From Chloroflexota bacterium (GTDB taxonomy: Bacteria; Chloroflexota; Dehalococcoidia; Lucifugimonadales; UBA3495), in contig JAQBUV010000002.1 in the NCBI GenBank assembly GCA_027623815.1, forward strand, positions 16,633 to 80,632: a stretch of DNA of 64,000 nt, in the 5' to 3' direction. A program made the position numbers and the translations under genes. The first letter of the stretch is position 1. The number at the start of each line of letters is the position of its first letter. The notes below the pieces were generated by a model. The model had not been told where the DNA came from. It saw only the letters and a program-made list of their open reading frames with translations, and did no database searches. Shown in pieces: positions 5,455 through 58,194 of the stretch.

Positions 5455-5463
5455 AATTAGTTC

Positions 5464-8630: not shown

Positions 8631-8870
8631 ATGGCTTTGGGCACCAGAAACCTGGTTGAAGAGCACCAGAAATTGGGCCGGGCTTGGATTGATGCCGAGC
8701 AGGAGCGGATCAGTATTCTGCAAAAAATACTGCAAGACAATTTTGCCAAATGCACAATGGACTATCCAGAGGACTTGTTCCGCGAATATGAAGCGGCGTT
8801 GTCCGCAGCATCTCAGGCCAATCAGGCCTATTTCCGGTGGCTGGCCGAGCAAGGCATCCAGTCCCGATAA
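8631..8870 (+). CDS. Small hypothetical protein (helical, 79 aa)
   Basis: The ATG at 8631 has GGGAG 8-9 nt upstream, and the helical composition is balanced. It competes with an overlapping ORF at 8656-8898 that is Arg/Ser/Cys-rich and less protein-like. Confidence 0.4.
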   Translation: MALGTRNLVEEHQKLGRAWIDAEQERISILQKILQDNFAKCTMDYPEDLFREYEAALSAASQANQAYFRWLAEQGIQSR

Positions 8871-8894
8871 TTTGATCCCGTACGTTCGCACCCT

Positions 8895-10244
8895 ATGACT
8901 GACTACAGCAACTACACCGTTTCAATCCATTACGACAAAAGGCTCTACCGTCAGGACATAACTGGCTCGAAAGCTCACGTTCGGATGTTGTCCCAGCAGG
9001 GGATCATTTCTCCGGAAGATGCCGAACAAATTGTCCAGGGTTTGATTGCGGTTCAAGAGGAGATCGAATCGGGAAAATTTCCCTGGGATGCCTCGCTGGA
9101 AGACCTGCACATGAACATTGAGCGGCGGCTGGCCCAGCTAATTGGCCCCACCGCCGGTCGGCTTCACACCGGTCGCTCCCGCAATGACCAGATTGCGCTG
9201 GACCTGCGACTGTACACCAAGGAAGTTATCAAGGATACCCTGGCCAACCTGCGGGGAGTGCAACAGGCTCTGGTGGGACTGTGCGAGCAATACAGCAGCG
9301 TAATCATGCCTGGGTATACTCACTTGCAGCGGGCTCAGCCAGTGCTTTTCTCCCACCATCTGCTGGCCTACTTCCAGATGCTGCAACGCGATGTGGGCAG
9401 ATTCAGCGACTGCTATCGTCGGACCGATGTATTACCCCTGGGCAGTGGTGCGCTGGCCGGGGTGCCCTACCCCACCGACCGCGAGTTCGTCGCGCAACAA
9501 TTGGGGTTCAGTAAAGTCAGCGCCAACAGTATGGACGCTGTATCTGATCGGGATTTTGCTCTGGAGTTCCAATTCGCCGCCGCCACGTGCATGATGCACT
9601 TTTCCAGAATGTCAGAAGAGATTGTAATCTGGTCCAGCCGGGAGTTCGGCTTCATCAGGCTGGCCGACGAATTCACCACCGGCAGCAGCATCATGCCCCA
9701 AAAGCGGAACCCCGACTTTGCCGAGATTGCCCGGGGCAAGACCGGGCGCGTCTACGGTAATTTGATGGGCCTGCTCACGGTGCTGAAAGGTCTGCCCCTA
9801 ACCTATAACCGAGACCTTCAAGAAGACAAGGAAGGGTTCTTTGACACGGTTGATACGCTGTTGGCGACTCTGAAGGTATATCAGGGCATGCTGCCGGGTC
9901 TGACGCTGGATGTCGAACGGGTGAGCAGCCTGTCCGGGGAAAGCTATATGCTGGCGACCGACCTGGCCGATTATCTGGTGGGCCGGGGGGTGCCATTTAG
10001 GGAGGCGCACGGAGTGATGCGCGACTTGTGCCGCTACTGCGAGGAGAGAAGCACCGATTTGCAGTCAATCTCGTTGGATGAATACCGGAAGTTCTCCGCA
10101 TCATTTGAGCAGGACGTTTATCAGATCAGCGCGGCATCGTCGGTGGCCGCTAGAGACAACCCGGGCGGGACTGCGCCCAAGCGAGTGGCGGAAGGGCTGG
10201 AACAAGCCAAACAAATCCTCAGGGATAATACCGATGGCCTCTGA
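8895..10244 (+). CDS. argH: Argininosuccinate lyase
   Basis: 449 aa with 'HTGRSRNDQ', 'GYTHLQRAQP' and the fumarate-lyase signature 'GSSIMPQKRNPD'. Confidence 0.95.
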   Translation: MTDYSNYTVSIHYDKRLYRQDITGSKAHVRMLSQQGIISPEDAEQIVQGLIAVQEEIESGKFPWDASLEDLHMNIERRLAQLIGPTAGRLHTGRSRNDQIALDLRLYTKEVIKDTLANLRGVQQALVGLCEQYSSVIMPGYTHLQRAQPVLFSHHLLAYFQMLQRDVGRFSDCYRRTDVLPLGSGALAGVPYPTDREFVAQQLGFSKVSANSMDAVSDRDFALEFQFAAATCMMHFSRMSEEIVIWSSREFGFIRLADEFTTGSSIMPQKRNPDFAEIARGKTGRVYGNLMGLLTVLKGLPLTYNRDLQEDKEGFFDTVDTLLATLKVYQGMLPGLTLDVERVSSLSGESYMLATDLADYLVGRGVPFREAHGVMRDLCRYCEERSTDLQSISLDEYRKFSASFEQDVYQISAASSVAARDNPGGTAPKRVAEGLEQAKQILRDNTDGL

Positions 10245-10926
10245 GTCGCACATACAGATTGCGCCTTCGGTGCTGGCCGCCGACTTTGCCAGACTGGGCC
10301 AGCAGGTGAAAGACGCGACCGAAGCCGGGGCCGACCTGATTCATGTTGATATAATGGACGGTCGGTTCGTCCCCAACATTTCCTTTGGCGAAGTGGTGGT
10401 GGATGCGGTGCGCCGGTCGACTCACTTGCCGCTGAACATCCACTTGATGATTCAGGAGCCGGACCGTCTGTTGCCCAGTTTCATGAAAGCTGACAGCGAT
10501 CAGATCATTGTCCATGCCGAAGCCTGCGGTCATTTGCATCGCACCGTGTCCTACGTGAAGGAGGCCGGGAGGCAGATTGGAGTGGCCATCAACCCGGGCA
10601 CCCCCGTGTCGGCCATTGAAGAGGTGCTTCAGTTTCTCGACATAGTGCTGGTGATGACGGTGAATCCCGGATATGGCGGCCAATCTTTTATACCGGCGGC
10701 ATTGGACAAGATCAAGCGGTTGCGCCGGATTATTGAGGAGAATGCCTACGCGGCACAAATTGAAGTGGATGGCGGAATCAAAGCTGATCACACGGCGCAG
10801 GATTCAGTGCGCGCCGGATCAACTATTCTGGTGGCGGGAACAGCTATCTTCAACGTTCAAGAATCCGTGTCCCAGGCAATGACCCGGATGCGAACCAGCA
10901 TCCGGGGACTTAACGCCGGAGATTAA
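10234..10926 (+). CDS. rpe: Ribulose-phosphate 3-epimerase
   Basis: 'IAPSVLAADFARLGQQV', 'IHVDIMDGRFVPNISFG' and 'VMTVNPGYGGQSFIP' are all present. I chose the start at ATG 10234 (overlapping the argH stop by 11 nt) because the ORF-track extension back to 10078 lies inside argH. Confidence 0.9.
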   Translation: MASESHIQIAPSVLAADFARLGQQVKDATEAGADLIHVDIMDGRFVPNISFGEVVVDAVRRSTHLPLNIHLMIQEPDRLLPSFMKADSDQIIVHAEACGHLHRTVSYVKEAGRQIGVAINPGTPVSAIEEVLQFLDIVLVMTVNPGYGGQSFIPAALDKIKRLRRIIEENAYAAQIEVDGGIKADHTAQDSVRAGSTILVAGTAIFNVQESVSQAMTRMRTSIRGLNAGD

Positions 10927-11147
10927 CCAGCCGCCGCTCTAATCATCAAGGTACGTGCCTTGACCGCGCGGGGGGGCTTGTTCACGGTACGCAGGCAGCG
11001 GGTGCAAATCTTCACGCGCTGTACCTTGCCCTTGATCAGCAAAGTCTGTTTGTGGACGTTGGCCTTGAACCGAGTCTTGGTGTGGCGGTTGGAGTGGCTA
11101 ACGTTGTTGCCGGACATGCCGGCCTTTAAGCAAATGTCACATCGCAT
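10923..11147 (-). CDS. rpmB: 50S ribosomal protein L28 (bL28), Cys-containing form
   Basis: 'C.IC...GNNVSHSNRHTKTRF.ANV' is the bL28 core. It also has CxxC...CxxC (C3/C6, C48/C51). Confidence 0.85.
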   Translation of the reverse strand: MRCDICLKAGMSGNNVSHSNRHTKTRFKANVHKQTLLIKGKVQRVKICTRCLRTVNKPPRAVKARTLMIRAAAG

Positions 11148-11539
11148 AGCAATTAATCTCGTCGGGAAGTAATTCCAGGCTCATATTTTCGATACTCAGC
11201 CTAACATACAGCGTGGCTGGTGACAAGGATTATTTGGGACGGGTGTGCGTAACATGAACATTAGAAATGCGAAACCGATGGACAATAATGAATGGGCCAG
11301 GGTGAGAAAATCTCCTGGGCCTTCAGAAATTAACCTGGCACCATGCATTCCAAACCATGTGGCCGACTATTCGGGTAGTTGCTTGGCGACATCTCCGGTT
11401 ATTAGCTGTCCGCTTTGACCCACACTGGTATGTTTATTGCGTAAAGCGTTCGGACGTAGCATAATTCCCCTCGGTGCGGGAAAGATGGTTGCCTAGAACT
11501 ATCATCCGGGCCGAAGTTTTGCCAGGTAAGGGTGATTGA

Positions 11540-12121
11540 GTGGATTCCACGGGGCGGCCGAGCAAAGGGTTCATGGGTTATCTAGCCAAAATGAAGGGCG
11601 ATAGCCGGAGAATCATAGAAGATACGCCCTTTATCGAAAAACTGAAGAACTCTTCCTGGGCTTGGCTGGGTTCGTCGTTGGCCATCGGTTTGTGCGCTTA
11701 CTTATCGTCCAGGTTTTTTGAACCGTGGGATACTGCTTTGATTATTGGCTCCTTTGGGGCCTCCGCCGTTCTGGTGTACGGAGTCATCGACAGCCCTCTG
11801 TCTCAGCCGAAAAACCTAGTAGGGGGGCATATGCTCTCCGGTGTCATTGGGGTAGCTTGCTTTCTTTTGCTGGGCACCGGCTGGGCCGCTGCTGCACTGG
11901 CAGTTTCCTTTTCTATAGTCGCCATGATTCTCACGAACACGGTGCATCCGCCGGGAGGGGCCACCGCCCTGATTGCCATTATTGGCGGCGGCCAGGTACA
12001 TCAACTCGGTTTCTGGTATGTGTTGGCACCCGCTGGACTGGGTGCGGTGGTATTGCTGATTGTCGCGTTATTGGTTAATAATCTAGCTCGAGACCGGCGG
12101 TATCCCCAGTATTGGTTTTAA
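11540..12121 (+). CDS. HPP family membrane protein
   Basis: 193 aa with 4-5 TM segments and the eponymous 'NTVHPPGGATALI' motif. The start is a GTG. Confidence 0.8.
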   Translation: MDSTGRPSKGFMGYLAKMKGDSRRIIEDTPFIEKLKNSSWAWLGSSLAIGLCAYLSSRFFEPWDTALIIGSFGASAVLVYGVIDSPLSQPKNLVGGHMLSGVIGVACFLLLGTGWAAAALAVSFSIVAMILTNTVHPPGGATALIAIIGGGQVHQLGFWYVLAPAGLGAVVLLIVALLVNNLARDRRYPQYWF

Positions 12122-13629: not shown

Positions 13630-13770
13630 TTGGCCCCCTTCTGTCAGACAATTATACGCTCATACCCTAATTTGCCGACCAGGTCAAAAGAATTAGAGGG
13701 TTGTGAGCGATTTCAGTGAGTCCATCTTTACGACGACCGGGGCAGTCTGATCAGGGGATTCATGATGCAA

Positions 13771-13818
13771 CGTTGTCTCTCTCGTTGTCTCTCTCGTTGT
13801 CTCTCTCGTTGTCTCTCT
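13771..13818. repeat. Perfect 12-bp x 4 minisatellite (CGTTGTCTCTCT)
   Basis: There are four identical head-to-tail units at 13771-82, 13783-94, 13795-806 and 13807-18. The array is intergenic. Confidence 0.97.
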
Positions 13819-13851
13819 ACCAAAGCATAGTTGAGGGCACACTGAAAATAA

Positions 13852-15270
13852 TTACCGCATTAATCTGGCCAGCCCTCGAATTATCCGCCCCGAAGTGCCG
13901 GTGAGCATCTGGCCCACTTTAATGTGCAGGGCGGCCTGTTGGCTGGCCATGGAGTAGGTGGGGTAGATGTGCAAAGAGTTGACCAGTTCGCCGATCTTCA
14001 TTCGCCGGTCCATTGCTAGAATCCATTCCTGAATCATCTCGCCGGCCCGACTATTGGCAATGGTGACACCCAGGATAGTGCCGTCGGGCCGGTGGACTAT
14101 TTTGATAAATCCGGCAGTGTCTCCTTCAGTAATCGCCCGGTCTACCCGCTCCATTGGCCAGCTACAGACCACTGCACCGTCTCCGTATTTCTCGGAAGCT
14201 TGAGCCTCGGTCAAACCCACGTGGGCGATTTCTGGGTCGGTGAAGGTGGCTGAGGGCACTCGATCCAGCACCGCCGTGGCCGCGCCGGGCAGCAGGGCGT
14301 TGCGCACCGCCATGAACCCCTGAAATCCGGCGTAATGGGTGAACTGATATCCGCCGGTGCAGTCTCCGGCGGCGTAGATGTGCCGCTGGCTGGTGCGCAG
14401 TTGATCGTTGACCGCTATTCCCCGACTGCTGTACTCGATACCTGCTTGCTCTAAGTCCAGACCATCAACCGTCGGACGGCGACCCACCGACAATAGCAAG
14501 GCATCGCCGGTTAACTCCTGCCCTCCGGCGACGATATGTATCTCCCCATCCTGCTTCCAGATGCGCTGCGCTCGCGAGTTCAGTCGAAACTCGACGCCGT
14601 CTTCGGCCATCTGCTGCTGTATCAGAGCAGAGACTTCGGGTTCTTCCTGGGGCAAAATGCGGGTGTCGTCTTCCAGTAGAGTGACTCCGGCGCCCAGGCG
14701 GCACAAAGCTTGGGCCAGTTCGCAGCCAATGGGGCCGCCACCGATCACCACCAAACGTTTGGGCAGAGATTCCAAGTCCCAGATGCTTTCGTAGGTCAGG
14801 TAATCGACCGAATCCAGGCCATCAATCGGCGGGATGAACGGGTGTGCGCCGGTGGCGATCAAAAATCGGTGGGCGGATAGACGCGCCTCGCCCACTGTAA
14901 TTGTGTGCGGGTCAACAAAACTGGCTTGCCCCAGATGAACGTCCACGCCTTCGGCACGTAGAGCATCCGGGGATTCGGGTTGATAGACCTGATCGACCAC
15001 TGAGCGCACGTGGTCCAACACGGCGCGAATGTCGATCACTGGCTCAGCCGGGCCGACCCCGTACCGGTTGGCGTGGCGCATGTCGTGGGCGACTTTGGCC
15101 GATTTGACCAGGGCCTTGCTGGGCACGCAGCCGGTCCAGGTGCAGTCACCGCCCAGCCGGTCTTTCTCCACCAGGGCGACTTTTTTGCCAAGCTGCACCG
15201 CGAATCCGGCGGCGGTCAACCCGGCGGAGCCCCCGCCGATGATAATCAGGTCGTAGTTCTGGTTCGCCAA
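13852..15270 (-). CDS. Pyridine nucleotide-disulfide oxidoreductase (dihydrolipoyl dehydrogenase / mercuric-reductase-like family)
   Basis: 472 aa with the FAD fold 'IIIGGGSAGLTAA', the redox-active disulfide 'GGDCTWTGCVPSK', the NAD fold 'VVIGGGPIGCELA' and a C-terminal dimerisation 'HIYPTYS'. Confidence 0.85.
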   Translation of the reverse strand: MANQNYDLIIIGGGSAGLTAAGFAVQLGKKVALVEKDRLGGDCTWTGCVPSKALVKSAKVAHDMRHANRYGVGPAEPVIDIRAVLDHVRSVVDQVYQPESPDALRAEGVDVHLGQASFVDPHTITVGEARLSAHRFLIATGAHPFIPPIDGLDSVDYLTYESIWDLESLPKRLVVIGGGPIGCELAQALCRLGAGVTLLEDDTRILPQEEPEVSALIQQQMAEDGVEFRLNSRAQRIWKQDGEIHIVAGGQELTGDALLLSVGRRPTVDGLDLEQAGIEYSSRGIAVNDQLRTSQRHIYAAGDCTGGYQFTHYAGFQGFMAVRNALLPGAATAVLDRVPSATFTDPEIAHVGLTEAQASEKYGDGAVVCSWPMERVDRAITEGDTAGFIKIVHRPDGTILGVTIANSRAGEMIQEWILAMDRRMKIGELVNSLHIYPTYSMASQQAALHIKVGQMLTGTSGRIIRGLARLMR

Positions 15271-15415
15271 ACTATGCTCTCCTGTCCTTGCGGGTAGTCT
15301 GCGCTTGTGCAGCGCATATCATTGTAGGTCGGTACGGCCAGATATTCTCAGTAGTATGATGTGCCGGAGATTAGCCAGGTGCTAATGTAGCTAGATATAC
15401 ACCACCCGGTGCCGT

Positions 15416-15424
15416 TGGTATAAT
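15416..15424 (+). promoter_or_regulatory. Candidate extended -10 promoter element (TGGTATAAT)
   Basis: TGnTATAAT lies 37 nt upstream of the ATG at 15461. I saw no clear -35. Confidence 0.35.
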
Positions 15425-15460
15425 CCCGCCAAGCAAATTACCGACAGGAGAACGTTCATC

Positions 15461-16360
15461 ATGCCTGAAGATTTGTCGAATATTCTTGAATCCACCGAAC
15501 CGGAACTGCTAGACGGCAACCAGGATCATACCGAAGGCCCGCTGTGGCATCGCGATGGCTACCTGACCTTTGTCAGCATTGCTCGCAGTCAGTTGGTGCG
15601 CTGGGACCCAGCAAAGAAGGTTTCCACCATTGCTCGGGAGGAGACCGGCGGCGGCAATGGCTGTACGCTTGATCGCCAGGGCAACCTGATCATGTGCGAA
15701 AGTGACCGTCGGTGTATCACCCGGATGGACGCCAGCGGCAAGGTGACCATCATCGCCGACCGCTGGCAGGGGAAGCGGTTCCACAAGCCCAACGATGTTA
15801 TCTGCCGTTCCGATGGCAGTATCTACTTCACCGATCCTTCCCTGCGCCTGGAGCCAGCGCTGCGGGAGATGGACGTTGCCGGAGTATACCGCATCGACCC
15901 GCAAGGACAGTTGCACCTGGCCACCGACCAGTGCGTCTACCCCAACGGGCTGGCCCTGTCGCCCGACGAGTCTATTTTGTACGTGGCCATCAGTAGGGCT
16001 GAGGAAGCCGACTTTGAGCGCGAGGCCAAGGGCGAGTTCTGCCCCAACCGCCGCCTGCTGGCCTTTGATGTCGCGCCAGATGGTTCATTGGGCGATAGCC
16101 GCGTTTTCATCGACATGGCTTCGGCTGAACCGGGCGTGCCCGACGGCATGAAGGTGGACACTGCTGGGCGCGTGTTCGCCAGTGGCTCCGGCGGTATCTG
16201 GGTCATTTCTCCCCAGGGAGAGAAGTTGGGGGTGATTAGAGTACCGGATGGCGCTCGCAACGTGGCCTTTGGCGGGACGGATATGCGCACTTTGTACATC
16301 ACCGGCGGGAATTCGCTGTACAGTCTGCGGGTAAAGACGCCGGGAATTGGGGCGTTCTAA
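15461..16360 (+). CDS. SMP-30/gluconolactonase/LRE family protein
   Basis: 299 aa with 'EGPLWH', 'PNDVICRSDGSIYFTDP', 'PNGLALSPDESILYVA' and 'PDGMKVDTAGRVF', the six-bladed propeller lactonase motifs. Confidence 0.85.
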   Translation: MPEDLSNILESTEPELLDGNQDHTEGPLWHRDGYLTFVSIARSQLVRWDPAKKVSTIAREETGGGNGCTLDRQGNLIMCESDRRCITRMDASGKVTIIADRWQGKRFHKPNDVICRSDGSIYFTDPSLRLEPALREMDVAGVYRIDPQGQLHLATDQCVYPNGLALSPDESILYVAISRAEEADFEREAKGEFCPNRRLLAFDVAPDGSLGDSRVFIDMASAEPGVPDGMKVDTAGRVFASGSGGIWVISPQGEKLGVIRVPDGARNVAFGGTDMRTLYITGGNSLYSLRVKTPGIGAF

Positions 16361-16383
16361 CCAATTCTAATCATGGAGGATCA

Positions 16384-16575
16384 ATGGAAGATTCTCCAGA
16401 ACCGCAGAAAGGGAGAAAGGATACCCACAAGTACATCGGCAAGTACATAGGAGTGGGAATCGCTTTAGGGGTGGCCTTTGGGGCGGCTGTTGACAACATT
16501 GGCCTTGGGATAGCCCTCGGCCTAGCAATTGGTGCGGCTTGGGGACAGAGGGCAAAGTCCAAGGGGGATGAGTAG
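16384..16575 (+). CDS. Small glycine-zipper membrane protein (63 aa)
   Basis: 'GVGIALGVAFGAAVDNIGLGIALGLAIGAAWG' gives GxxxG repeats. GGAGGA sits just upstream, but the spacing to the start is short. Confidence 0.4.
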   Translation: MEDSPEPQKGRKDTHKYIGKYIGVGIALGVAFGAAVDNIGLGIALGLAIGAAWGQRAKSKGDE

Positions 16576-16663
16576 TGCGACAACTGATCCACCGCCACTA
16601 TCGAATTGACCAGCGAACGTTTTACTGCAATAATCGCACCAGCCTAACGAGGAGGAATAAGCT

Positions 16664-17581
16664 ATGACTACAACTACTACTGTCGGCAGCGGTAAATATA
16701 CCTATGAGATGCACACCGACTGGGCCAAGCCACCCGCGGGTCAGGCGATGCCAGCGGCGGCGGTGTACGGCGATTCCCAAGACCATGTCTACTGCTTCAA
16801 TCGAAACCTGGACCATCCGGTTCAGATTTTTGACCGGGAAGGCAACTATCTGAACTCCTGGGGCGCGGGAATTTTCGCCTTTCCCCACGCCATCATCGTG
16901 GACAAGAACGACGATGTTTGGGTGGTGGAGCGCAACCACGGCCAGATCATGAAGTTCACCAAAGAGGGCAAGCTGCTCCAGACCATTGGCGAGAAGGGAT
17001 TCCGCTCGGATACCGGCGCCGACAACACCGACTTCGGCTCCAACGGCTGGTCGCTGGTGACCCACGGCGGCGACCCCTTCAACATGCCGGCGGGCATCGC
17101 GGTCAACGACGCTGGCGAGATTTTCATCGCCGACGGCTACGCCAACGCTAGGGTGCACAAGTTTGCGCCGGACGGCACGCTGATCAAGTCCTGGGGCGGC
17201 CCTGGCTCCGGCCCCGGACAATTCAACCTGCCTCATGGCTGCTGGATCGACCGGAAAGGGCGTCTGTTCATCGCCGACCGGGAGAACGACCGGGTGCAGG
17301 TCTTCGACCAGGAAGGCGCGCATCTGGCCACCTGGCCCAGCAAGCTGATTGGCCCGGCGGTGATCTACGTCGATGACGACGACATTGTCTACGTCGCTGA
17401 GCACAACGGGGGGCTGGTCAGCATCCTGACTCTGGAAGGGGAGATGCTGACCCAATGGGGTTCGCTGACCCACCGATCCTGCCACGGCATCTGGGTGGAC
17501 TCGCATAAAGACATCTACGTTGTGGAGCCTTACGAGGGCAGCACGGGCCGAACCGTGGTGAAGTTCGCCCACAAAGGCTAG
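16664..17581 (+). CDS. NHL-repeat beta-propeller protein (peptidyl-alpha-hydroxyglycine amidating-lyase-like)
   Basis: 305 aa with repeated NHL units, e.g. 'GQFNLPHGCWIDRKGRLFIADRENDRVQVFDQEG' and 'PAGIAVNDAGEIFIADGYANARVHKF'. The RBS is GAGGAGG. Confidence 0.75.
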   Translation: MTTTTTVGSGKYTYEMHTDWAKPPAGQAMPAAAVYGDSQDHVYCFNRNLDHPVQIFDREGNYLNSWGAGIFAFPHAIIVDKNDDVWVVERNHGQIMKFTKEGKLLQTIGEKGFRSDTGADNTDFGSNGWSLVTHGGDPFNMPAGIAVNDAGEIFIADGYANARVHKFAPDGTLIKSWGGPGSGPGQFNLPHGCWIDRKGRLFIADRENDRVQVFDQEGAHLATWPSKLIGPAVIYVDDDDIVYVAEHNGGLVSILTLEGEMLTQWGSLTHRSCHGIWVDSHKDIYVVEPYEGSTGRTVVKFAHKG

Positions 17582-17621
17582 ATTGCCTATTGCGCGCCAG
17601 CTATGGTTTTGGTATATTTAT

Positions 17622-17654
17622 GGAGCGGTGCCTGCGGGCACCGCTCCTCTTTGT
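17622..17654 (+). terminator. Rho-independent terminator after the NHL-repeat gene
   Basis: An 11-bp perfect stem GGAGCGGTGCC / GGCACCGCTCC with loop TGCG is followed by TCTTTGT. Confidence 0.75.
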
Positions 17655-17656
17655 GG

Positions 17657-17730
17657 GGGGCTGTAGCTCATTTGGGAGAGCGCCCCGATTACATCGGGGA
17701 GGATGAGGGCTTGGGCCACCAGGCTCTCGG
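17657..17730 (+). pseudogene. Degenerate tRNA-like sequence (intact Val-UAC-type anticodon arm, broken T-arm and acceptor 3' strand)
   Basis: The first 27 nt (GGGGCTGTAGCTCATTTGGGAGAGCGC) are identical to the 5' end of the adjacent tRNA-Ala. The anticodon arm CCCCG-ATTACAT-CGGGG is intact. The region that should be the T-arm reads GAGGGCTTGGGCCACCAGGCTCTC, which forms a 10-bp hairpin with a GCCA loop. No 3' strand complementary to GGGGCTG is present. Confidence 0.5.
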
Positions 17731-17745
17731 CAAAAAACAAATCGT

Positions 17746-17821
17746 GGGGCTGTAGCTCATTTGGGAGAGCGCTTCAATGGCATTGAAGAGGTAGAGGGTT
17801 CGATTCCCTCCAGCTCCACCA
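17746..17821 (+). tRNA. tRNA-Ala (anticodon GGC), CCA encoded
   Basis: A 76-nt cloverleaf folded by hand. The acceptor is GGGGCTG/CAGCTCC with the G3:U70 alanine identity pair, the D arm is GCTC/GAGC, the anticodon loop is ATGGCAT, the T arm is GAGGG-TTCGATT-CCCTC, and it ends in ACCA. Confidence 0.95.
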
Positions 17822-17862
17822 ACCCCTCTGAAATCTGCAGGGACCGTTTAGCCTACCTCCAT

Positions 17863-18618
17863 TTACTCAGCAATGCTATCCGAGTAGTAAAACATCGCGA
17901 TAAACAATGCCAGGAAGTTTGCTTCTACCGATGGATCAGGTAATTCCCCATGCATTACAGGGTTTCTGATACTATCTAGTCGTTCTTCCAACCTTAATTT
18001 GGTGTCTAGACTTCTTAGCCGCTTTGCCAAGTTTGCTTGGTTTCGGTACAGGTAGATAGTAAATGCCTGATTGATTCGGTTGACGCTTTTAGGTTTTCTC
18101 TGATTAATGCCTGCTTTGAGCCTTAGCTGTTTAGGTATGGGGCGTATTACGGTTCCATTCGCTGACAAATAACGTCCGTTCACTCGGCATAGAAACTCTA
18201 GCTGAGCCAAGAGGTACATGGCGGCCATTGCTCCTCCACCCGCCCTAACTTGGCTGAAGTCATCTCTGTCGGATGGCAAGGCAGAGCTAAATTCAAGATG
18301 AGCGATCAAGAGCAATGCGGCTTTTATGGGCTGCACCCGGCGTCCGTTGAATCCAGTTCCTTTTCCGCTGAACTCTCTGCCGAAGTTAAGAATGGACTGA
18401 CCAACATCGCCCGAGTCTGCAAAGCCGCCCATGTGACTGCATGACTCAATGATTAATTTTTCGGCTATATGAACTTTGAGACGAGACGATAGATCGGTAA
18501 AACTCCAAGCGTCGAATATGCGTGGGGTTTTACTATTCAGGAGTTCTTGGTGGCCTCTGGTTGGTTTTCCCCAGGAGTTTCTACACCACTCCTCAAAGGA
18601 ATCTATCTCGTAGCTCAT
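17863..18618 (-). CDS. Hypothetical 251-aa protein with a C-terminal HEPN-like Rx4H motif (candidate toxin/Abi-type effector)
   Basis: It has an ATG start and is low-GC relative to its surroundings. The C-terminus 'RLDSIRNPVMHGELPDPSVEANFLALFIAMFYY' fits R-x4-H followed by a hydrophobic helix. I recognise no other family. Confidence 0.55.
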   Translation of the reverse strand: MSYEIDSFEEWCRNSWGKPTRGHQELLNSKTPRIFDAWSFTDLSSRLKVHIAEKLIIESCSHMGGFADSGDVGQSILNFGREFSGKGTGFNGRRVQPIKAALLLIAHLEFSSALPSDRDDFSQVRAGGGAMAAMYLLAQLEFLCRVNGRYLSANGTVIRPIPKQLRLKAGINQRKPKSVNRINQAFTIYLYRNQANLAKRLRSLDTKLRLEERLDSIRNPVMHGELPDPSVEANFLALFIAMFYYSDSIAE

Positions 18619-18699
18619 AAGCCCACCGGCGTTGGCATCAAGGCGTCTCCAGTTTTCGCTTAATCAACGCCCTGGTTATCTGGTAGTCGGTCTCCAGGT

Positions 18700-18921
18700 T
18701 CAGCCAGAAGCGGGCGGGAAAAATTCCCTAGCCTCAACGCCGCCTTGTTGCTCCCATTCGCCGCGCGCGTCGGCCAAGTTGGCCTGCAACTCCTCGTCTT
18801 CTCTGGCCTCCAACCACTCAGTGAGGGCCTCGGCAATAATGTCCTTGGCGTGGCGGCCTTTTCGCGCCGCTTCCACTTTCAAGGCCGTGTATAGCGCCTC
18901 ATCTTCGAAGATGACGGTCAT
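18700..18921 (-). CDS. Ribbon-helix-helix (CopG/antitoxin-like) DNA-binding protein
   Basis: 'MTVIFEDEALYTALKVEAARKGRHAKDIIAEALTEWLEA' shows the beta-strand/helix/helix pattern, followed by an acidic tail. I chose the ATG at 18921; the ORF-track start at 18987 is a TTG. Confidence 0.7.
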   Translation of the reverse strand: MTVIFEDEALYTALKVEAARKGRHAKDIIAEALTEWLEAREDEELQANLADARGEWEQQGGVEAREFFPPASG

Positions 18922-18997
18922 GTGTTTGGACAAATAAACTCCTAAACGTGTAAGTCCATCATATCCGCTTGGTCGCTCCTTTGGCAATGACTGCGTG

Positions 18998-19038
18998 CGA
19001 CAATAAACAAAGCCCCTTGATGATAAGTCAGGGGGCTT
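18998..19038 (-). terminator. Candidate terminator after the LLM oxidoreductase gene
   Basis: On the minus strand there is a stem AAGCCCC / GGGGCTT (7 bp, 15-nt loop) followed by TGTTTATTG. Confidence 0.5.
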
Positions 19039-19065
19039 CTACGTCAATTGACTTGTCGTTGTTGG

Positions 19066-20151
19066 TTACTTCCGCAGTTGCGGGGCAACCTCCTCACCAT
19101 AGAGGCGAATGGAGTTCAGCACCTGCTGTTCGGTTAGCTGGCCGCCCACGTTGGGCTCCATAATCACGCCGGCCAGTCCTAACTCGCTAATCAGGTTCTT
19201 CAGCTTCTTGGCGACTGTGTCTGGGGAGCCGTAGGCCAGGCGGTCTTCCAGCAGTTCTTCGTAGGTTACGTTGGACAGACGCTCATACCGTTGTTGGCGT
19301 TCCTCAGAGGCAGTCGTTCCCGCCGCCCCCGCTGATGCGGCAAAGTTCTCGGCCAGACGCTGGTAAGAGCGCACGGTACTCGCCCTGGGTTCCTCAATTC
19401 CTTGCTGGTCGGTCTCCCCAACGTAGATCGGCACCCGCAGATAGGCATCGCCTTTATTTTCGTGCCCGAAATCCTTCAGCGCTTGCCGGTAAGACTCCAT
19501 GTTTTTGGCGACTTCAGGGATATCAAACCCGCGCAGTCCGCTGACCACCGAATAGCCTAATTGGCCAACCATCGGGAAGGTGTCCGAGGTGGTGGCGGCG
19601 ATGCGGATGGGCGGGTGCGGCTTCTGGTAAGGTCGCGGCATCACGCACAGGTTGTCGAAGGAGTAATACTTGCCTTCGTAGGTCAGCCGGTCATTGTTCC
19701 AAGCCTGGGTGATAATCTCCAGGTTCTCCTGGAATCGCTCCCTGCTTTCGGCGTAGGGTATGCCGTAGCCGATGTATGACCTGGGAAAGCCGCTGCGACC
19801 TACGCCGAAGTCCAAACGGCCCTGGCTGATCTGGTCAACGGTGGCGGCTTCTTCGGCCAGCCGGATGGGGTGGCACAGAGGCAGCACGCTGACGCCGGTG
19901 CCAATGCGGATGCGCTTGGTGCGGGCGGCGATGGCGCTGGCCCACACCAGCGGCACCGATACTACCGACGGTATGCCAGCGCCCATTGGGTCGGTGGGTG
20001 TGCGGTGCATCGCGAAATGCCGCTCGGCCAGCCAGACTCCGTCCAAGCCACGTTCTTCTGCCGTTTCGGCGATTGTGAAGGCCTCTTGGAAGGCTTCCTC
20101 TTGAGTCCTTCCCTGTCGAAAGTCGCATTCCATGACTAGACCGACGTGCAT
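19066..20151 (-). CDS. LLM-class (luciferase-like) flavin/F420-dependent oxidoreductase
   Basis: 361 aa. The N-terminus 'MHVGLVMEC...ERGLDGVWLAERHF' and TIM-barrel LLM features are present. The RBS is AGGAGG with 6-nt spacing. Confidence 0.85.
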   Translation of the reverse strand: MHVGLVMECDFRQGRTQEEAFQEAFTIAETAEERGLDGVWLAERHFAMHRTPTDPMGAGIPSVVSVPLVWASAIAARTKRIRIGTGVSVLPLCHPIRLAEEAATVDQISQGRLDFGVGRSGFPRSYIGYGIPYAESRERFQENLEIITQAWNNDRLTYEGKYYSFDNLCVMPRPYQKPHPPIRIAATTSDTFPMVGQLGYSVVSGLRGFDIPEVAKNMESYRQALKDFGHENKGDAYLRVPIYVGETDQQGIEEPRASTVRSYQRLAENFAASAGAAGTTASEERQQRYERLSNVTYEELLEDRLAYGSPDTVAKKLKNLISELGLAGVIMEPNVGGQLTEQQVLNSIRLYGEEVAPQLRK

Positions 20152-20174
20152 GTTTTGCCTCCTGCTATTCTCAT

Positions 20175-20200
20175 GGGAACGAATGCTGGGAACGAATGCT
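20175..20200. repeat. Perfect 13-bp tandem duplication (GGGAACGAATGCT x2) in the 5' leader of the LLM gene
   Basis: 20175-20187 is identical to 20188-20200. The repeat lies 24-49 nt upstream of the minus-strand start at 20151. Confidence 0.95.
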
Positions 20201-20242
20201 GATTTACTTGCCCACTTCTCAAATGCGGGCTGCTCAACTCAG

Positions 20243-20440
20243 CTAGCCCGTGTAAGTGTTGGGGCTGGCCAGAAACTTGGTGCGGCAGTCCATACTACAA
20301 AAATAGTACCACTGGCCGTTGTGGAAGCTGCGAGTGCCCATGTTGGGGTCTACTTCAGCAGCCCCGTGCGCCGTCTGGCCCGTAGAGGCCCGCGCTCCTG
20401 ATTCGTCAATGTCTTTGCCGCATACCGGGTCTTTGGGCAT
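20243..20440 (-). CDS. YHS (TRASH-like) metal-binding domain protein
   Basis: 65 aa. 'DPVCGKDI' ... 'YYFCSMDCRTKF' is the YHS-domain Cys pattern. Confidence 0.8.
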   Translation of the reverse strand: MPKDPVCGKDIDESGARASTGQTAHGAAEVDPNMGTRSFHNGQWYYFCSMDCRTKFLASPNTYTG

Positions 20441-20481
20441 GTAAAAATCTCCTGCTGGTCTAAGCTAAATAGTTATATATA

Positions 20482-21657
20482 TCAAGCGACCGGAATCTGA
20501 TCCATACCCAGCCAGACTTTGCCGGGCTGGTCGATCAAAGCCTTGGAAATCCGGGCGCGGTGCTCGAAGCTGGTGCCTAGTCGCATCGTCCAAGCCGTCA
20601 CCCGTCGATACCACAAGTGCAGGTCAAACTCCATCATAAAGCCCATGCCGCCGTGGAGCACCTGACTTGAGCGCACTGCCGCCTGGCATTTGTCGTTGCA
20701 GAAAGCCTTGGCCTGGGAAACTTCGATACTGGCCGGGAGACCCTCGTCCATCTTCCACAGGGCTTCGTAGGTCAATAATTGCGCCCCATCGACCCAGATG
20801 GTCATGTCGGCGCACATGTGCTGCACCGACTGGAACGCCCCGATGGGACGACCGAAGGCGACCCGGTTTTTGGCGTACTCAATGGCCATTTCAATGTCTT
20901 TGCGAGCCGCTCCGACCATTTGGGCGCACAATAAAACGGTGGCCCGGTCTAGCATGGCCTGCGCTACAGTCCAACCCTGGTTCAGTTCGCCGACCAGGTT
21001 GGCTTTGGGGACTCGCACCTGGTTAAATTCGACCTTGCTCTGCTTGTCCTTGGCCAAGGTCACCAGAGGGGTGTGCGAAATTCCCGGCGTGTTGGTGTTA
21101 ACCAGGAACATGGAAATGCCCTGGTTGTCTGCTGACGCCGGAGCGGTGCGACAGGCCACCAGGCATTTTTCGGCGACGTTAAAGTTGTCCACGAACATCT
21201 TGGTGCCGGTGATGACGTAGTGGTCGCCATCGGCCACGGCTTGAGCCTGTACCGCTTCGGGCAACAGTCGAGGGTCTTGCTCCTGAAATGCCCAGGTCAT
21301 GATTAAGCTGCCCTGGCTGACTCTGGGTAGCACTTCCTGGCGCTGCTCCTCGGTGCCGTCACTGGCGATGGTCAATGCCGGAACGACGGTGCTGTGGAAG
21401 GGCACTGGAGCGATGGAGCGTCCCACCTCTTCCAGGATCAGTGCCAGGTAAGTCAGTGGCAAGCCCTGGCCGTCGTAGGCCTCAGGGATAGACATCCCGA
21501 ACCAACCCAGTTGGGCCATCTTGTTCCACAGTTCCGGCGGGTAGCCCTGGTCGTCCTTTTCCATGTCCCGGGCCAACCGGGGAGGGGACTCGGCCTCAAG
21601 AAATTCTCGGGCCAAGTTTTTCACCATCTGTTCTTCTTCGCTGGGTAGTACGTCCAT
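20482..21657 (-). CDS. Acyl-CoA dehydrogenase family protein
   Basis: 391 aa with an N-terminal helical domain, a middle beta-domain 'AFQEQD...TGTKMFV' and a C-terminal 'YAKNRVAFGRPIGAFQSVQHMCADM'. Confidence 0.9.
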   Translation of the reverse strand: MDVLPSEEEQMVKNLAREFLEAESPPRLARDMEKDDQGYPPELWNKMAQLGWFGMSIPEAYDGQGLPLTYLALILEEVGRSIAPVPFHSTVVPALTIASDGTEEQRQEVLPRVSQGSLIMTWAFQEQDPRLLPEAVQAQAVADGDHYVITGTKMFVDNFNVAEKCLVACRTAPASADNQGISMFLVNTNTPGISHTPLVTLAKDKQSKVEFNQVRVPKANLVGELNQGWTVAQAMLDRATVLLCAQMVGAARKDIEMAIEYAKNRVAFGRPIGAFQSVQHMCADMTIWVDGAQLLTYEALWKMDEGLPASIEVSQAKAFCNDKCQAAVRSSQVLHGGMGFMMEFDLHLWYRRVTAWTMRLGTSFEHRARISKALIDQPGKVWLGMDQIPVA

Positions 21658-21699
21658 AATGCTGATTAACCTGCGACGATTTTTTTGTTATCTTGAATA

Positions 21700-22902
21700 T
21701 TAACCCCGGGGCATGCCCAACCCGCGACGGGCGACCTGGTCGCGCATCACCTGGGCGCTGCCATGATTGATGCCTGATTGGAAGGCGCCCATCAGGTTGT
21801 GGGCGAATACGCCGCCTTCAATGTTGTCTTCGGAACTGCTCAACAACTGGCCGTAGGCACCCAGTATCTGAGCGATGGTCTCGGTGGTTTTAACGCCATG
21901 CTCGGGTGCCCAGACCTTCTCAGCTGACCCTTCGTAAGTGAAGGTGCCGCCCCGCTCAACCAGCGACATGCTGCGCATGGTCATCAAACGGCAGACCTGG
22001 GCTTCGATCCAAAGCTCAGCCAGTCGGTCACGCACCGCCGGGTCTTGGGAAGGGCCATAGCCGCCCATATCGTTTTCTTTGACCCAGTTGATAATGTCTT
22101 CGTCGCGCTGCACCGATAGGAGATACCGGCTGGCCCCTACCCGGTCTAGGTTAAGGCCCAACGCGCCCACATACCAGCCGGTGTTTTCCTCGCCCAGCAT
22201 ACATGAAGCAGGTATGTGAACGTCTTCAAAAAAGACCTCGTTGGTGCGACGGTCGCCATAGGTGGTGCGGCGGGGGGCCGGTGGGTCGTTCTGGATCGTC
22301 CACAGGGGCCGCACCGTGATCCCTGGCGTTTCCATTGGCACTAGGAAAATGGAGATGCCCTTGTGTCGGGGAGCCTCCGGGTCGGTGCGGGCCATCAAGT
22401 ATATGTGGCTGCCGCTGTGAGCGCGGGTGGTGTACATTTTCTGGCCGTTAATGACGAACTCGTCGCCGTCACGGACCGCGCGGCATTGGAGACCGGCCAG
22501 GTCAGCACCGGCTTGTGGTTCGGTGAAACCCAGGGCAAAGGAAATCTCGCCCCGAATCAGTCCCGGCAGGAAGTATTTCTTTTGCTCTTCGGTGCCTGCT
22601 GCCAGAATCGCCGGTGCGCCGCTGCCCGCGCCGCCGACTTCGACGCCAACACGGCCAAACTCTTCCTCGACGATATACTGGTCGATGCGGCTGCCGCCCT
22701 GCCCGCCGTACTCTTTCGGCCAGCTAATACCGATCCAGCCCCTATCGGCTACTTTCTGGTACATCTCGCGGGTTTTAGGGCCTCGGCTACGCACCCCAGA
22801 TTCTTCAACCTCGGCTAGAATCTCTGGGGTCACGTATTCTGCAATGAATTGACGCACTTCCTCCCGAAGGGTTTGTTGTTCTGGCGTGTACGCAAAATCC
22901 AT
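21700..22902 (-). CDS. Acyl-CoA dehydrogenase family protein
   Basis: 400 aa with 'GFTEPQAGADLAGLQCRAVRDGDEFVINGQKMYTT' and a typical ACAD N-terminus 'MDFAYTPEQQTLREEVRQF'. Confidence 0.9.
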   Translation of the reverse strand: MDFAYTPEQQTLREEVRQFIAEYVTPEILAEVEESGVRSRGPKTREMYQKVADRGWIGISWPKEYGGQGGSRIDQYIVEEEFGRVGVEVGGAGSGAPAILAAGTEEQKKYFLPGLIRGEISFALGFTEPQAGADLAGLQCRAVRDGDEFVINGQKMYTTRAHSGSHIYLMARTDPEAPRHKGISIFLVPMETPGITVRPLWTIQNDPPAPRRTTYGDRRTNEVFFEDVHIPASCMLGEENTGWYVGALGLNLDRVGASRYLLSVQRDEDIINWVKENDMGGYGPSQDPAVRDRLAELWIEAQVCRLMTMRSMSLVERGGTFTYEGSAEKVWAPEHGVKTTETIAQILGAYGQLLSSSEDNIEGGVFAHNLMGAFQSGINHGSAQVMRDQVARRGLGMPRG

Positions 22903-23192
22903 AAAAGGCCTCTCTTTATCGTCAGGTAGGCTACCCGGAAAATTTTGCCGGCAAACTCTGATAGTAAACTTTGGTAGGAACCTACGTGCTTGACTGATAT
23001 GCTTCGGTAGCTGCGGCCATTATAGTACGTCTGCCCCTGAGTGTCACCAGATAGCGTCTAAAGACCAGGGTTAGTCCCGTTTACCGTGTTTGACACTCGA
23101 TGCGCCTCAAATCATAATACCAAACATCTGATTTGGGTAACCTTTGTTTCTGAATTCCTACCTAACCAGCTTATGTATTTAGAGGTGAAAAG

Positions 23193-24293
23193 ATGCCAAC
23201 GAAGTACCAAGACTGGGAATTGACCTCCGCCGAGCAGAAGAAGTTTGGCGATTGGATGGCCAGAATTATGACCGGTCACACCGGCACCACCGACGTCCGC
23301 AACGAGCACGTCAACTGGACGCCACCGGCCAAGCCGCTTACCGAGTCTGTCGTCGGCCTCTTCACCACCGGGGGAGTCCATTTGAAAAGTGACACCCCAT
23401 TCGACGTGATTAGCGCGCACGGCGACTGGACTTTCCGGACGATTCCTGGTGATGTTGACACCTCCTCGGACTTGACCATTACCCACACCCACTACAACCA
23501 CGTTGACGCCGACCGGGATGTTAACTGCATGTTCCCCCTGGACCGGCTGCGGGAACTCAAACAACAAGGCGTGATTGGCGACGTAGCTCCCAACGCCTAC
23601 ACCATCATGGGGTTCAATCCAGACCCGGCCAAACTGATCGAGGAGACCGCTCCCGAAGTGGCCCGACGGTTCAAGGCCGACGGCGTTGATCTGGTGTTTA
23701 TGACCTGTGGTTGACCCGTCTGTCACCGGTCTGTAGGACTGGTACAAAACCAGATTGAAGGGGCGGGCGTCACCACCGTTTCCATGTCGGTGCAGCCGCA
23801 CATCACCGCTACCGTCGGTGTGCCTCGGGGGATTTTCCTGCGCTACCCGGCGGGCAACCAGGTGGGCGAGGCGGGCAAGCCGATACAGCAGCGGGCCATC
23901 CTGACCGCCGCATTGGAGTCGGCTTATAGTATCGAGTCTCCGGGTACGGTGATCGAACTTCCCTTCCGCTGGCGCAGGTTTCCCACTGAAGAAGAGCCAG
24001 TTTTCCAGGGCAAGTCCAGCGGGCCGCGACACCGGCAGGCCGAAGTAATCGGTGAGACTCTGGACACGATGGTGCGACAGGCTCGGGAGTATAAATCCTG
24101 GCTGGAAGGGCGGCGTTCCCAGGAAGAGGCCAGCGCCACTCCGATACTTGGATTATCCGGGGCTTTGCGCGCTCAAGTGGAGCGAGTTGACCAGTTGATC
24201 GAGGTTCTGGACACCAGCACGCTGGACCAGTACCGGGAGGTAGTGAACTCCATCGCCACCCTGGAACTGCGGGCCAGCGGCAAGTTTGTGTAG
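23193..24293 (+). CDS. Glycine/sarcosine/betaine/D-proline reductase selenoprotein-B (GrdB/PrdB) family protein with an in-frame UGA (selenocysteine) at 23712-23714
   Basis: ORFs 23193-23714 and 23784-24293 are in the same frame, and no other stop lies between 23715 and 23783. The read-through context is 'VFMTCG-U-PVCHRS' (UxxC). 'HYNHVDADRDVNCMFPLDRLRELKQQGVIGDV' resembles the GrdB-family 'D.N...P.D.LREL..EG.IG' block. Confidence 0.7.
23725..23743 (+). promoter_or_regulatory. Candidate bacterial SECIS hairpin
   Basis: A 7-bp stem ACCGGTC / GACTGGT (one G.U pair) with loop TGTAG starts 10 nt after the UGA. Confidence 0.4.
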
Positions 24294-28374: not shown

Positions 28375-28494
28375 CCCTTATCCAGAACGGCGGAGGGAGC
28401 GGCCCTATGATGCCAGGCAACCGGCCTAGCTGTCGGCTAGACAGCGGGACACGGTGCCAAATCCGACGTCCCCATTGGGGGCGAGAGATGAGGG
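28375..28494 (+). promoter_or_regulatory. SAM-I (S-box) riboswitch aptamer
   Basis: The sequence is CCCTTATC-CAGAAC-GGCGGAGGGAGCGGCCCTATGATGCC-AGGCAACC...GGTGCCAAATCC...GAGAGATGAGGG. The conserved S-box blocks (TTATC..AGA..GGCGGAGGGA..GGCCC.ATGA..GGCAACC..GGTGC.AA.TCC..AGATGAG) and the P1 pairing CCCTTATC/GATGAGGG are all present. Confidence 0.9.
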
Positions 28495-58029: not shown

Positions 58030-58073
58030 GGGGTAACGTAACAATATAAGTAACTTGAAAAGGAACTTGGGCA

Positions 58074-58168
58074 CGTAGGGGAGCTTGGTTGAGCCAGGCT
58101 GAGAGGGTGGCCGATATGCCGCCGACCCTTGCGAACCTGAACTGGGTAATGCCAGCGTAGGGAAGCGG
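58074..58168 (+). promoter_or_regulatory. TPP (THI-box) riboswitch
   Basis: The sequence is GGGGAGC...GGCTGAGAGGG...ACCCTTGCGAACCTGAACTGGGTAATGCCAGCGTAGGGAAG. The conserved CTGAGA, ACCCTT.GAACCTGA and GGGTAATGCCAGCGTAGGGAA blocks are present. Confidence 0.9.
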
Positions 58169-58194
58169 CGCTTGATAATAATGGTCTAGTATGA

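Follow-up and report, generated by a model that had tools for sequence, protein, structure and literature searches.

We analysed a 64,000-nt stretch of DNA from a Chloroflexota bacterium (the window, whose numbering is used throughout), and in it a minus-strand gene for a 251-amino-acid (aa) protein of an unnamed family that bears HEPN-like sequence signatures and converges on a tRNA-Ala gene, with 41 nt separating the tRNA from the stop codon of the 251-aa gene. A first-pass annotation made from the sequence alone had placed this gene in a low-GC islet together with a small ribbon-helix-helix (RHH) gene just upstream, and had proposed that the two form a toxin/defence pair. Both open reading frames (ORFs), the 251-aa product and tRNA-Ala are present where that annotation had put them (ORF list, ARAGORN), as is the motif RNPVMH, and its hand counts of G+C (49 of 120 nt in 17881-18000, 41 of 60 nt in 17281-17340) are exact. 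The features of the locus are as follows; L numbers denote the loci used for comparison.

17863..18618, minus strand: the 251-aa gene, solitary and of an unnamed family, its product all-alpha with a C-terminal HEPN-like region (ORF, homologues and AlphaFold2 (AF2) model)
17950..17967, minus strand: R218-N-P-V-M-H223 (Rx4H), then the invariant G224 (translation, 66-member conservation, AF2 helices)
18184..18198, minus strand: E141-F-L-C-R145, an Ex3[KR] motif and second HEPN signature (translation, conservation; motif definition from PMC3710099)
17822..18653, no strand: an 832-bp low-GC segment with the 251-aa gene, directly adjoining the tRNA-Ala 3' end (L034-L036 compared with the window by blastn, L034 sequence)
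17746..17821, plus strand: tRNA-Ala(GGC), which converges on the 251-aa gene and whose 3' end is one boundary of the segment (ARAGORN; Rfam tRNA, 63.5 bits)
18700..18933, minus strand: the RHH gene, 77 aa from TTG 18933 or 73 aa from ATG 18921, an orphaned RHH-ParE antitoxin (translation, homologues)
18638..18715, minus strand: C-terminal remnant of a HigA-type helix-turn-helix (HTH) antitoxin gene (ARFWLNLETDYQITRALIKRKLETP, then stop), its 5' edge being the junction of a deletion of about 480 bp (translation, comparison with L034)
18958..19047, minus strand: two sites resembling sigma-70 promoters, upstream of the RHH gene (consensus scan)

The low-GC islet proved real for the 251-aa gene, and the RHH gene does not belong to it. 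The 251-aa ORF has 46.8% GC and 48% GC at third codon positions (GC3), the lowest value of any 756-bp window across the 64 kb, and the part that is foreign in composition is confined to 17822..18653, with 47.8% GC against a window mean of 55.9%. The RHH gene (59.0% GC, GC3 70.5%) resembles the flanking LLM gene (60.1% GC, GC3 72.7%) and the NHL-repeat gene (60.9% GC). No integrase or other mobility gene accompanies the locus, in agreement with the first-pass annotation: there is no integrase-sized ORF in 15000-22000, and none of the Pfam-assigned genes of the public copy of the same locus (L033, corresponding to window 13688-23933) is of that kind. A 12-nt repeat, ATAAACAATGCC, at 17900 and 19003 was considered as an element boundary and rejected as a chance match lying within the ORF.

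HEPN signatures in the 251-aa protein family

The 251-aa protein has 54 close homologues (43-65% identity), all of them unnamed and, wherever an organism name is attached, all from Chloroflexota. When 1.84 billion cluster representatives were searched exhaustively with a profile, 114 clusters came up at E<=1e-3, and the family occurs in three of 185,579 species genomes, each of them a Dehalococcoidia metagenome-assembled genome. The window protein belongs to a small unnamed family, centred on Dehalococcoidia, whose members are about 200-340 aa long. Homologues near 16S in L012/L023/L024 and in L025 match only from residue 48-52 on, with products of 216-224 aa, and are either N-terminally shortened variants or decaying copies.

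HEPN proteins are defined by an Rx4-6H motif with a polar residue (N, D or H) right after the arginine, placed where helix 3 ends and extending into the loop to helix 4, by another acidic residue, usually within an Ex3[KR] motif of an earlier helix, and by a variable insert between helices 2 and 3 (PMC3710099). We examined conservation in 66 diverse members, reaching down to 16% identity with the window protein, and found that R218, H223 and G224 are the only invariant residues, while E141, G155 and R213 are conserved in at least 90%. The spacing from R to H is four residues in 65 members and five in one; R[NDH]x3H occurs in 63 of the 66, R218 being followed by N (33 members), H (22) or D (eight). 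The upstream motif is held just as tightly, with Ex3[KR] in 65 of 66 members, E141 in 65 (D in the other) and K or R at +4 in all 66. All three sequence hallmarks of HEPN, namely Rx4-6H, the polar residue after R and the upstream acidic Ex3[KR], are therefore found in the family, and the HEPN-like Rx4H motif picked out by the first-pass annotation has sequence-level support, its R218 and H223 being invariant in all 66 members.

The predicted structure places these motifs in a comparable arrangement. The AF2 model of the 251-aa protein (pLDDT 89, pTM 0.90) is all-alpha, with a helix at 120-146 that holds Ex3R, a helix at 196-222 of which the segment 210-222 ends at Rx4H, and, after a loop, a final helix at 229-250. 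Between the Ex3R helix and the motif helix lies an insert (147-195) that contains a beta hairpin, and the position of Rx4H at the end of the penultimate helix of the model is the one given for HEPN proteins (PMC3710099). Judged from its sequence, which agrees with the HEPN definition at every point, the 251-aa protein probably belongs to HEPN.

The RHH gene is an orphaned antitoxin unrelated to the 251-aa gene

The small ORF upstream, which ends at 18700, could start at ATG 18921 (73 aa), TTG 18933 (77 aa) or TTG 18987 (95 aa). The TTG 18933 start is the one called in L033, which is 99.9% identical to the window and in which the 77-aa RHH form is followed by the 251-aa gene. Its identification as an RHH protein is reasonable, although the profile matches, all of RHH type, are weak (Pfam 56B_RHH, E=1.2e-4, and RH3_dom, E=0.048, both under the gathering score; a FitA-like match; Arc-like PHROGs). 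More than 300 protein clusters hold homologues of 77-81 aa with 72-100% identity, which come from assemblies of Dehalococcoidia, SAR202 and other Chloroflexi, some on Mb-size contigs. This conservation is unusually high for a component of a toxin-antitoxin module.

The partner of the RHH gene can be seen in close relatives of the window. Strains L034-L037 are 98.5-99.2% identical to it over the LLM and acyl-CoA dehydrogenase genes, and in L034 the order is an RHH gene (81 aa), 2 nt, an 87-aa ParE ORF, a HigA-like HTH frame, 24 nt and tRNA-Ala. The ParE ORF (L034 5249-5512) starts 2 nt past the RHH stop and matches ParE_toxin (PF05016) with 44.8 bits, the cut-off being 23. The same arrangement recurs in L038, a much more distant genome in which the RHH protein is 84% identical and the ParE gene (5249-5512, 47.6 bits against the same cut-off of 23, again 2 nt past the RHH stop) was overlooked by the gene caller. 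All of L034-L038 have the RHH gene without the 251-aa gene.

Comparison with L034 shows what became of this module in the window. Homology by blastn stops at window position 18719 and resumes at 18715 after 480 bp of L034 have been skipped, window 18654-18715 being 84% identical in nucleotide sequence to L034 5696-5757. A deletion of about 480 bp has thus taken parE together with the 5' portion of the higA-like gene, and has changed the RHH C-terminus to PPASG in place of HDLKTGPAQ. A tail of 25 codons of the HigA-like gene is left at 18638..18715 and fills the intergenic stretch between the RHH gene and the 251-aa gene. The match of the HigA-like frame to HTH_3 is weak (E=0.021), and in L034 the longer frame (5516-5773) offers no ATG, GTG or TTG start until its last 34 codons are reached, so that it may be a pseudogene even in that strain. 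Because the deletion removed parE, the RHH gene of this strain is the orphaned antitoxin of a conserved RHH-ParE module. The module itself is ordinary: it resembles the ParD/RHH-ParE type II modules of the RelE/ParE superfamily in having an RHH gene and then ParE_toxin within 2 nt in L034 and L038, and the window differs from these in that the toxin is deleted and the RHH C-terminus altered, which leaves the RHH gene an orphan.

The 251-aa gene, for its part, has no partner. A tblastn search with the RHH protein found no RHH homologue beside any 251-aa homologue, 0 of about 20 loci, and no conserved neighbour or conserved small upstream gene is shared across these loci. The neighbours of close homologues vary from locus to locus (SNase, MarR, hisB/histidine-biosynthesis and unknown genes, often convergent), and no MNT gene adjoins the window ORF or lies in those homologue loci that have Pfam-annotated neighbours. 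In its own subfamily the 251-aa gene is solitary.

These comparisons bear directly on the toxin/defence pair of the first-pass annotation, in which the RHH protein would be the cognate type II antitoxin that neutralises a HEPN toxin. The two genes are co-directional, only 81 nt apart and without a promoter-like site between them, RHH proteins are common antitoxins, and the 251-aa protein has HEPN motifs. Nevertheless, the co-occurrence in other genomes by which that annotation had proposed to judge the pair is absent, the RHH family outnumbers the 251-aa family about 100-fold and has ParE as its partner in L034 and L038, the 81-nt intergenic stretch is the remnant of a HigA gene, the two genes differ by 12 points in GC and 22 in GC3, and a 99%-identical strain has RHH-ParE without the 251-aa gene. 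We consider a cognate pair scarcely credible. The unusual RHH plus HEPN architecture does not exist as a system. The RHH gene has a partner of its own, a ParE-family toxin deleted here; the RHH gene is unrelated to the 251-aa gene, and their adjacency is an accident of two rearrangements.

At the same time, the accident may have consequences for expression. A consensus scan found two sigma-70-like sites upstream of the RHH gene against a shuffle mean of 1.0, which is weak evidence, and no sigma-70-like match between the RHH and 251-aa genes. With no promoter-like site between the two genes, the 251-aa gene may be transcribed in this strain from the RHH promoter, that of an autoregulated, former toxin-antitoxin module. 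Such transcription would be an accidental regulatory coupling and not a toxin-antitoxin relationship.

Association with the 3' ends of stable-RNA genes

Where the window has the 832-bp segment 17822..18653, L034-L036 have 24 nt, and L034 5782-5811 is identical to the tRNA-Ala 3' end. The site is therefore polymorphic for presence and absence, being filled in the window and L033 and empty in L034-L036, and the 251-aa gene, which is intact, is a recent difference between strains. When the loci of homologues were compared, the neighbourhood of a stable-RNA 3' end was found to recur.

tRNA-Ala(GGC), in the window and L015: gene convergent, 41 nt and 64 nt away
tRNA-Ile(GAT), in L014 and L017: gene convergent, 64 nt away
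16S rRNA 3' end, in L010, L020, L024, L025 and L026: gene 83-192 nt away
16S rRNA 3' end, in L018 and L029: contig extends into the 3' flank or end of 16S

In L010 it is the spacer from the 16S 3' end to tRNA-Ile that holds the gene, in antisense orientation. In L001, 67 nt past the gene, there is a copy of 17 nt of the tRNA-Ala 3' end, and because the intact tRNA lies 2.8 kb beyond that copy, we conclude that a second insert pushed the gene and tRNA-Ala apart. Overall, a stable-RNA neighbour is present in at least 10 of the roughly 17 flanked loci, and about seven of the 17 are without an RNA gene nearby (among them L004, L007, L013, L019, L021 and L022). L007 is a mobile-element neighbourhood without any RNA gene: at 8798-12073, about 2 kb separate its homologue from an IS3-type transposase (HTH_Tnp_1, rve), a large serine recombinase and an excisionase-like HTH_17 gene. 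If about 3% of genes are assumed to lie tail to tail within 200 nt of a stable-RNA gene, three to four independent contexts among 10-11 would give, as a rough estimate, P of about 1e-3 to 3e-4. The family is thus associated with stable-RNA genes.

Several of these loci also show that the same DNA sits beside different tRNA genes. The tRNA-Ile locus L014 and the tRNA-Ala loci L015 and L001 share an 855-bp core that begins at -50, reaches the tRNA boundary and has 89-91% identity, and the 200 nt upstream of the core are unrelated between tRNA-Ile and tRNA-Ala loci. In L014 and L017 the gene alone occupies a unit of 1035/1036 bp with a 29-nt repeat of the tRNA-Ile 3' end at its edges (identity 100% and 97%), the repeat extending in degenerate form into the anticodon arm. 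A deeply diverged member, about 17% identical to the window protein, provides a parallel: its 1427-nt contig (L042) has the same 30 nt at both ends (100%), corresponding to a tRNA T arm, acceptor end and CCA and enclosing a 1397-bp unit in which no gene besides that of the family was called; a 79-aa ORF (97-336) immediately upstream of it looks spurious. No integrase is found in or next to the repeat-bounded units. Degenerate att-like repeats were sought in L015 and L001, where scores equalled those of shuffles, and T-arm remnants were sought near homologues without RNA-gene neighbours, where none was found except in L042.

Integrase-mediated attP x attB recombination classically leaves long repeats of the tRNA end behind. 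The units look like cassettes moved in trans, in the manner of cis-mobilisable elements (CIMEs) and integron cassettes, or like repeatedly reduced islands. They share with CIMEs (catalogued in PMC6323972) and integron cassettes a very small size, a single cargo, the lack of a recombinase and recombination-site repeats at their edges, and an 'integron cassette HEPN' family has been listed (PMC3710099). They differ from these in that the repeats are tRNA 3' ends and not attC sites, that no integron integrase or integrative and conjugative element was identified, and that the window copy is without a detectable flanking repeat.

Two quite different readings of this association were considered. 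In one, the cassette would be moved by the protein that it encodes, a homing nuclease or site-specific recombinase of a new type for tRNA and rRNA 3' ends, which would account for its being the sole conserved or called gene in units with 29-30-nt tRNA-end repeats in two deeply diverged lineages, with no integrase in or beside them. However, no Tyr or Ser is invariant or at least 90% conserved among the 66 members, so that a tyrosine or serine recombinase was rejected for want of a conserved nucleophile, the protein has no likeness to any recombinase or nuclease profile or structure, and tRNA-end repeats mark tyrosine integrases, which can act in trans as they do for integrase-less CIMEs. We regard a self-moving protein as very improbable. 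In the other, the protein would be a housekeeping factor that processes or quality-controls the adjacent tRNA-Ala, tRNA-Ile or 16S rRNA, in keeping with its position beside stable-RNA genes and with the part that Las1, the KEN domain and other HEPN domains play in RNA processing (PMC3710099). Against this stand the presence of the family in so few species genomes, its presence and absence between 99%-identical strains, its foreign composition, its orientation (convergent with the RNA genes, without co-transcription), the occurrence of the same cassette beside different tRNAs and the loci with no RNA gene at all. The chance of a housekeeping role is, in our view, slighter still.

Some further sequence features of these loci deserve mention. 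A 20-nt perfect palindrome, GAAGAATAGGCCTATTCTTC, in L014 (2124-2153) ends 2 nt before the ATG; it is partly conserved in the L017, L015 and L001 cassettes and missing from the window copy, and could be an operator or a hairpin masking the ribosome-binding site. Also in L014, 140 nt past the outer repeat of the cassette, there is a third and different tRNA 3'-end-like sequence (1758-1786; T arm and acceptor end, 72% against the tRNA-Ile repeat), which suggests a tandem array of integration scars. In the window, a tRNA-like element lies at 17657-17727 on the plus strand, 19 nt upstream of tRNA-Ala. Its first 27 nt equal the tRNA-Ala 5' end exactly, its T arm and acceptor are degenerate, and its anticodon arm has paired changes and would read TAC (Val); it scores 27.3 bits with Rfam tRNA (cut-off 29), is without an ARAGORN call and is probably a tRNA pseudogene. 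The repeat it forms probably explains why sister-strain contigs end inside tRNA-Ala. Elsewhere in the window are a SAM (S-adenosylmethionine) riboswitch at 28375-28494 on the plus strand (80.4 bits) and a TPP (thiamine pyrophosphate) riboswitch at 58067-58181 on the plus strand (61.1 bits).

Proposed role and comparison with known systems

The reading that we favour, and consider somewhat likelier than all others together, is that the 251-aa gene is a solitary, horizontally acquired HEPN-type RNase gene, carried on a small mobile cassette and serving in conflict or defence. We see it as behaving like a mobile cassette because, across the family, integrase-less units of about 1 kb at tRNA-Ala, tRNA-Ile and 16S 3' ends contain no other conserved or called gene; the cassette is presumably moved in trans. 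The comparisons themselves show to which family the protein belongs, that its motifs are conserved, that strains are polymorphic for the gene, that it has no partner, that RHH goes with ParE and that the family is tied to stable-RNA genes. We infer the HEPN fold, RNase activity, dimerisation, defence role and mode of mobility. By analogy with characterised HEPN enzymes, the protein would be a homodimer that has a composite R/H site and cuts RNA without metal, leaving 2',3'-cyclic phosphate ends. As in ApeA, AbiV and other one-protein HEPN systems, it would be the N-terminal helical region of about 115 residues, and not a separate antitoxin, that restrains the activity until a trigger arrives. 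The role may be one of abortive infection or defence, or perhaps a selfish stabilisation of the cassette.

A number of results weigh against this reading. The predicted-structure check for HEPN that the first-pass annotation had called for, Foldseek on an AlphaFold model, gave no significant match and no convincing HEPN match: nothing at E<=0.001 when the full-length model and a model of residues 117-251 (pLDDT 89), a truncation that may remove helix 1, were compared with PDB, and nothing significant when the full-length model was compared with BFVD; HepT/MntA and Csx1 appeared only at E~5, with a probability of 0.12. Sequence searches of PDB with the protein, two family profiles and the member P0124 found no HEPN protein, and matches to mS47 (E 0.02) and SRA1 (E 1.2) were judged spurious. 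Scans of the window protein with the Pfam, NCBIfam, PADLOC and PHROG models gave no match. When the 66 members were run against the same libraries, only two sub-threshold HEPN_Apea matches arose amid scattered single noise matches, and no PADLOC model, ApeA or other, matched them consistently. HEPN_Apea (PF18739) is the sole Pfam family matched by more than one member (two of 66, best E 0.0011; P0124 residues 117-233 with 15.5 bits against a gathering threshold of 24.4 bits), these matches lying under the Pfam cut-off and within the range of single spurious matches in the same scans; neither the window protein nor the family consensus matches it. No homologue was found in 2.9 million viral contigs (IMG/VR), nor in INPHARED phages or PLSDB plasmids. 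As for acquisition, no tRNA-end repeat flanks the segment in the window, the best local match equalling the shuffle mean. Since the other edge of the segment has no tRNA-end repeat, insertion here and deletion in a sister strain are formally indistinguishable; the segment was gained here or lost there, and its foreign composition favours gain. Finally, because there is no PADLOC match and no IMG/VR, INPHARED or PLSDB homologue, the putative defence role draws solely on the context of distant members.

That context is of a conflict type in three cases. In L039, a same-strand block around the member P0084 (527-7636) comprises an RNA ligase, DUF6939, Tpt1, an AAA ATPase, the HEPN-like gene, a 309-aa unknown and ThiF; the RNA ligase, Tpt1 (PTS_2-RNA) RNA 2'-phosphotransferase and AAA ATPase are directly upstream of the HEPN-like gene on the same strand, and ThiF is downstream. 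The block looks like an RNA-damage/repair conflict system, and linkage to RNA-repair genes fits an RNA-cutting enzyme. The distant member in L032 lies with an AAA_15/21 ATPase and a large serine recombinase, and that in L043 in a toxin-antitoxin-rich island.

The structural and profile nulls leave a place for another explanation, in which the protein is not a HEPN RNase at all and has some other all-alpha fold, ligand-binding or regulatory, with R, H, G and E in a different chemistry. None of three Foldseek searches with high-confidence models produced a significant match, and every curated HEPN profile stays below its threshold. On the other hand, two independent signatures are present family-wide with the right spacing and helix positions and with a polar residue after R, HEPN families are too divergent for routine fold or sequence matching (PMC3710099), and one distant member (L039) sits among RNA-repair genes. 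We take a different fold to be unlikely, yet clearly the most serious of the alternatives.

If the 251-aa protein is a HEPN RNase, as we favour, it can be compared with several known systems, and it falls outside every family described so far. ApeA is a single-protein anti-phage HEPN tRNA anticodon nuclease. The two are alike in consisting of one protein, without an antitoxin, in which a C-terminal HEPN-type region follows an N-terminal region without known homology. ApeA stays inactive as long as no ligand is bound in the pocket that lies between the N-terminal domain and the HEPN domain (bioRxiv 10.64898/2026.01.26.701840), and ligand-gated control is of the kind proposed here for the 251-aa protein. 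The difference is one of size and build: ApeA has about 580 aa in an N-terminal/Mid/split-HEPN architecture and forms decamers (bioRxiv 10.64898/2026.01.26.701840), compared with 251 aa here, and the 251-aa family reaches neither the PF18739 threshold nor the ApeA architecture.

AbiV, AbiD/AbiF, AbiJ and AbiU2 (grouped in PMC3710099) are, like the 251-aa family, small stand-alone Rx4-6H proteins with a patchy distribution on mobile DNA. The 251-aa family matches none of their Pfam or PADLOC models, however, and its hosts are uncultured Dehalococcoidia. With HepT-MntA (HEPN-MNT) and RnlA-RnlB the protein would share the chemistry of a HEPN RNase toxin, as predicted here. Minimal HepT has Rx4H about 30 residues from its C-terminus, and the 251-aa protein likewise has the motif near its C-terminus. 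The HepT and RnlA toxins differ in that each adjoins a cognate antitoxin (MNT, RnlB), none being conserved here, and Foldseek places HepT only at the distance given above. From its sequence, the family is best filed as a new one within the HEPN kind, pending structural or biochemical confirmation.

We also considered a bolder version, in which the units form an undescribed class of one-gene, integrase-less mini-cassettes, inserted site-specifically at tRNA and 16S 3' ends and in some cases lying between tRNA-end repeats of >=29 nt, whose placement, convergent with the stable-RNA genes and in L010 antisense within the 16S-to-tRNA-Ile spacer, is itself a control device. Read-through antisense transcription from the strong stable-RNA promoters would silence the antitoxin-less HEPN RNase during growth, and the RNase would be released when stable-RNA synthesis collapses, for example upon phage shut-off or starvation. 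We hold this to be improbable.

The locus is also a cautionary case, in that an RHH gene beside a toxin-like gene looked like a pair, and a 99%-identical strain shows that loss of ParE and gain of a cassette, two unrelated events, brought them together. The interest that remains lies in the HEPN-like family and in its cassette-like tie to tRNA and 16S 3' ends. Integrase-less units of about 1 kb at these 3' ends, in two deeply diverged branches, are a pattern that we did not find described for HEPN genes, and the recurrent position raises the questions of who moves the units and how a toxin without an antitoxin stays silent. If the protein is an active RNase, it would represent a new, compact (250 aa) and partner-less family in the HEPN defence and conflict repertoire, and would come from a phylum, Chloroflexota, and a class, Dehalococcoidia, whose immune systems are almost unstudied.

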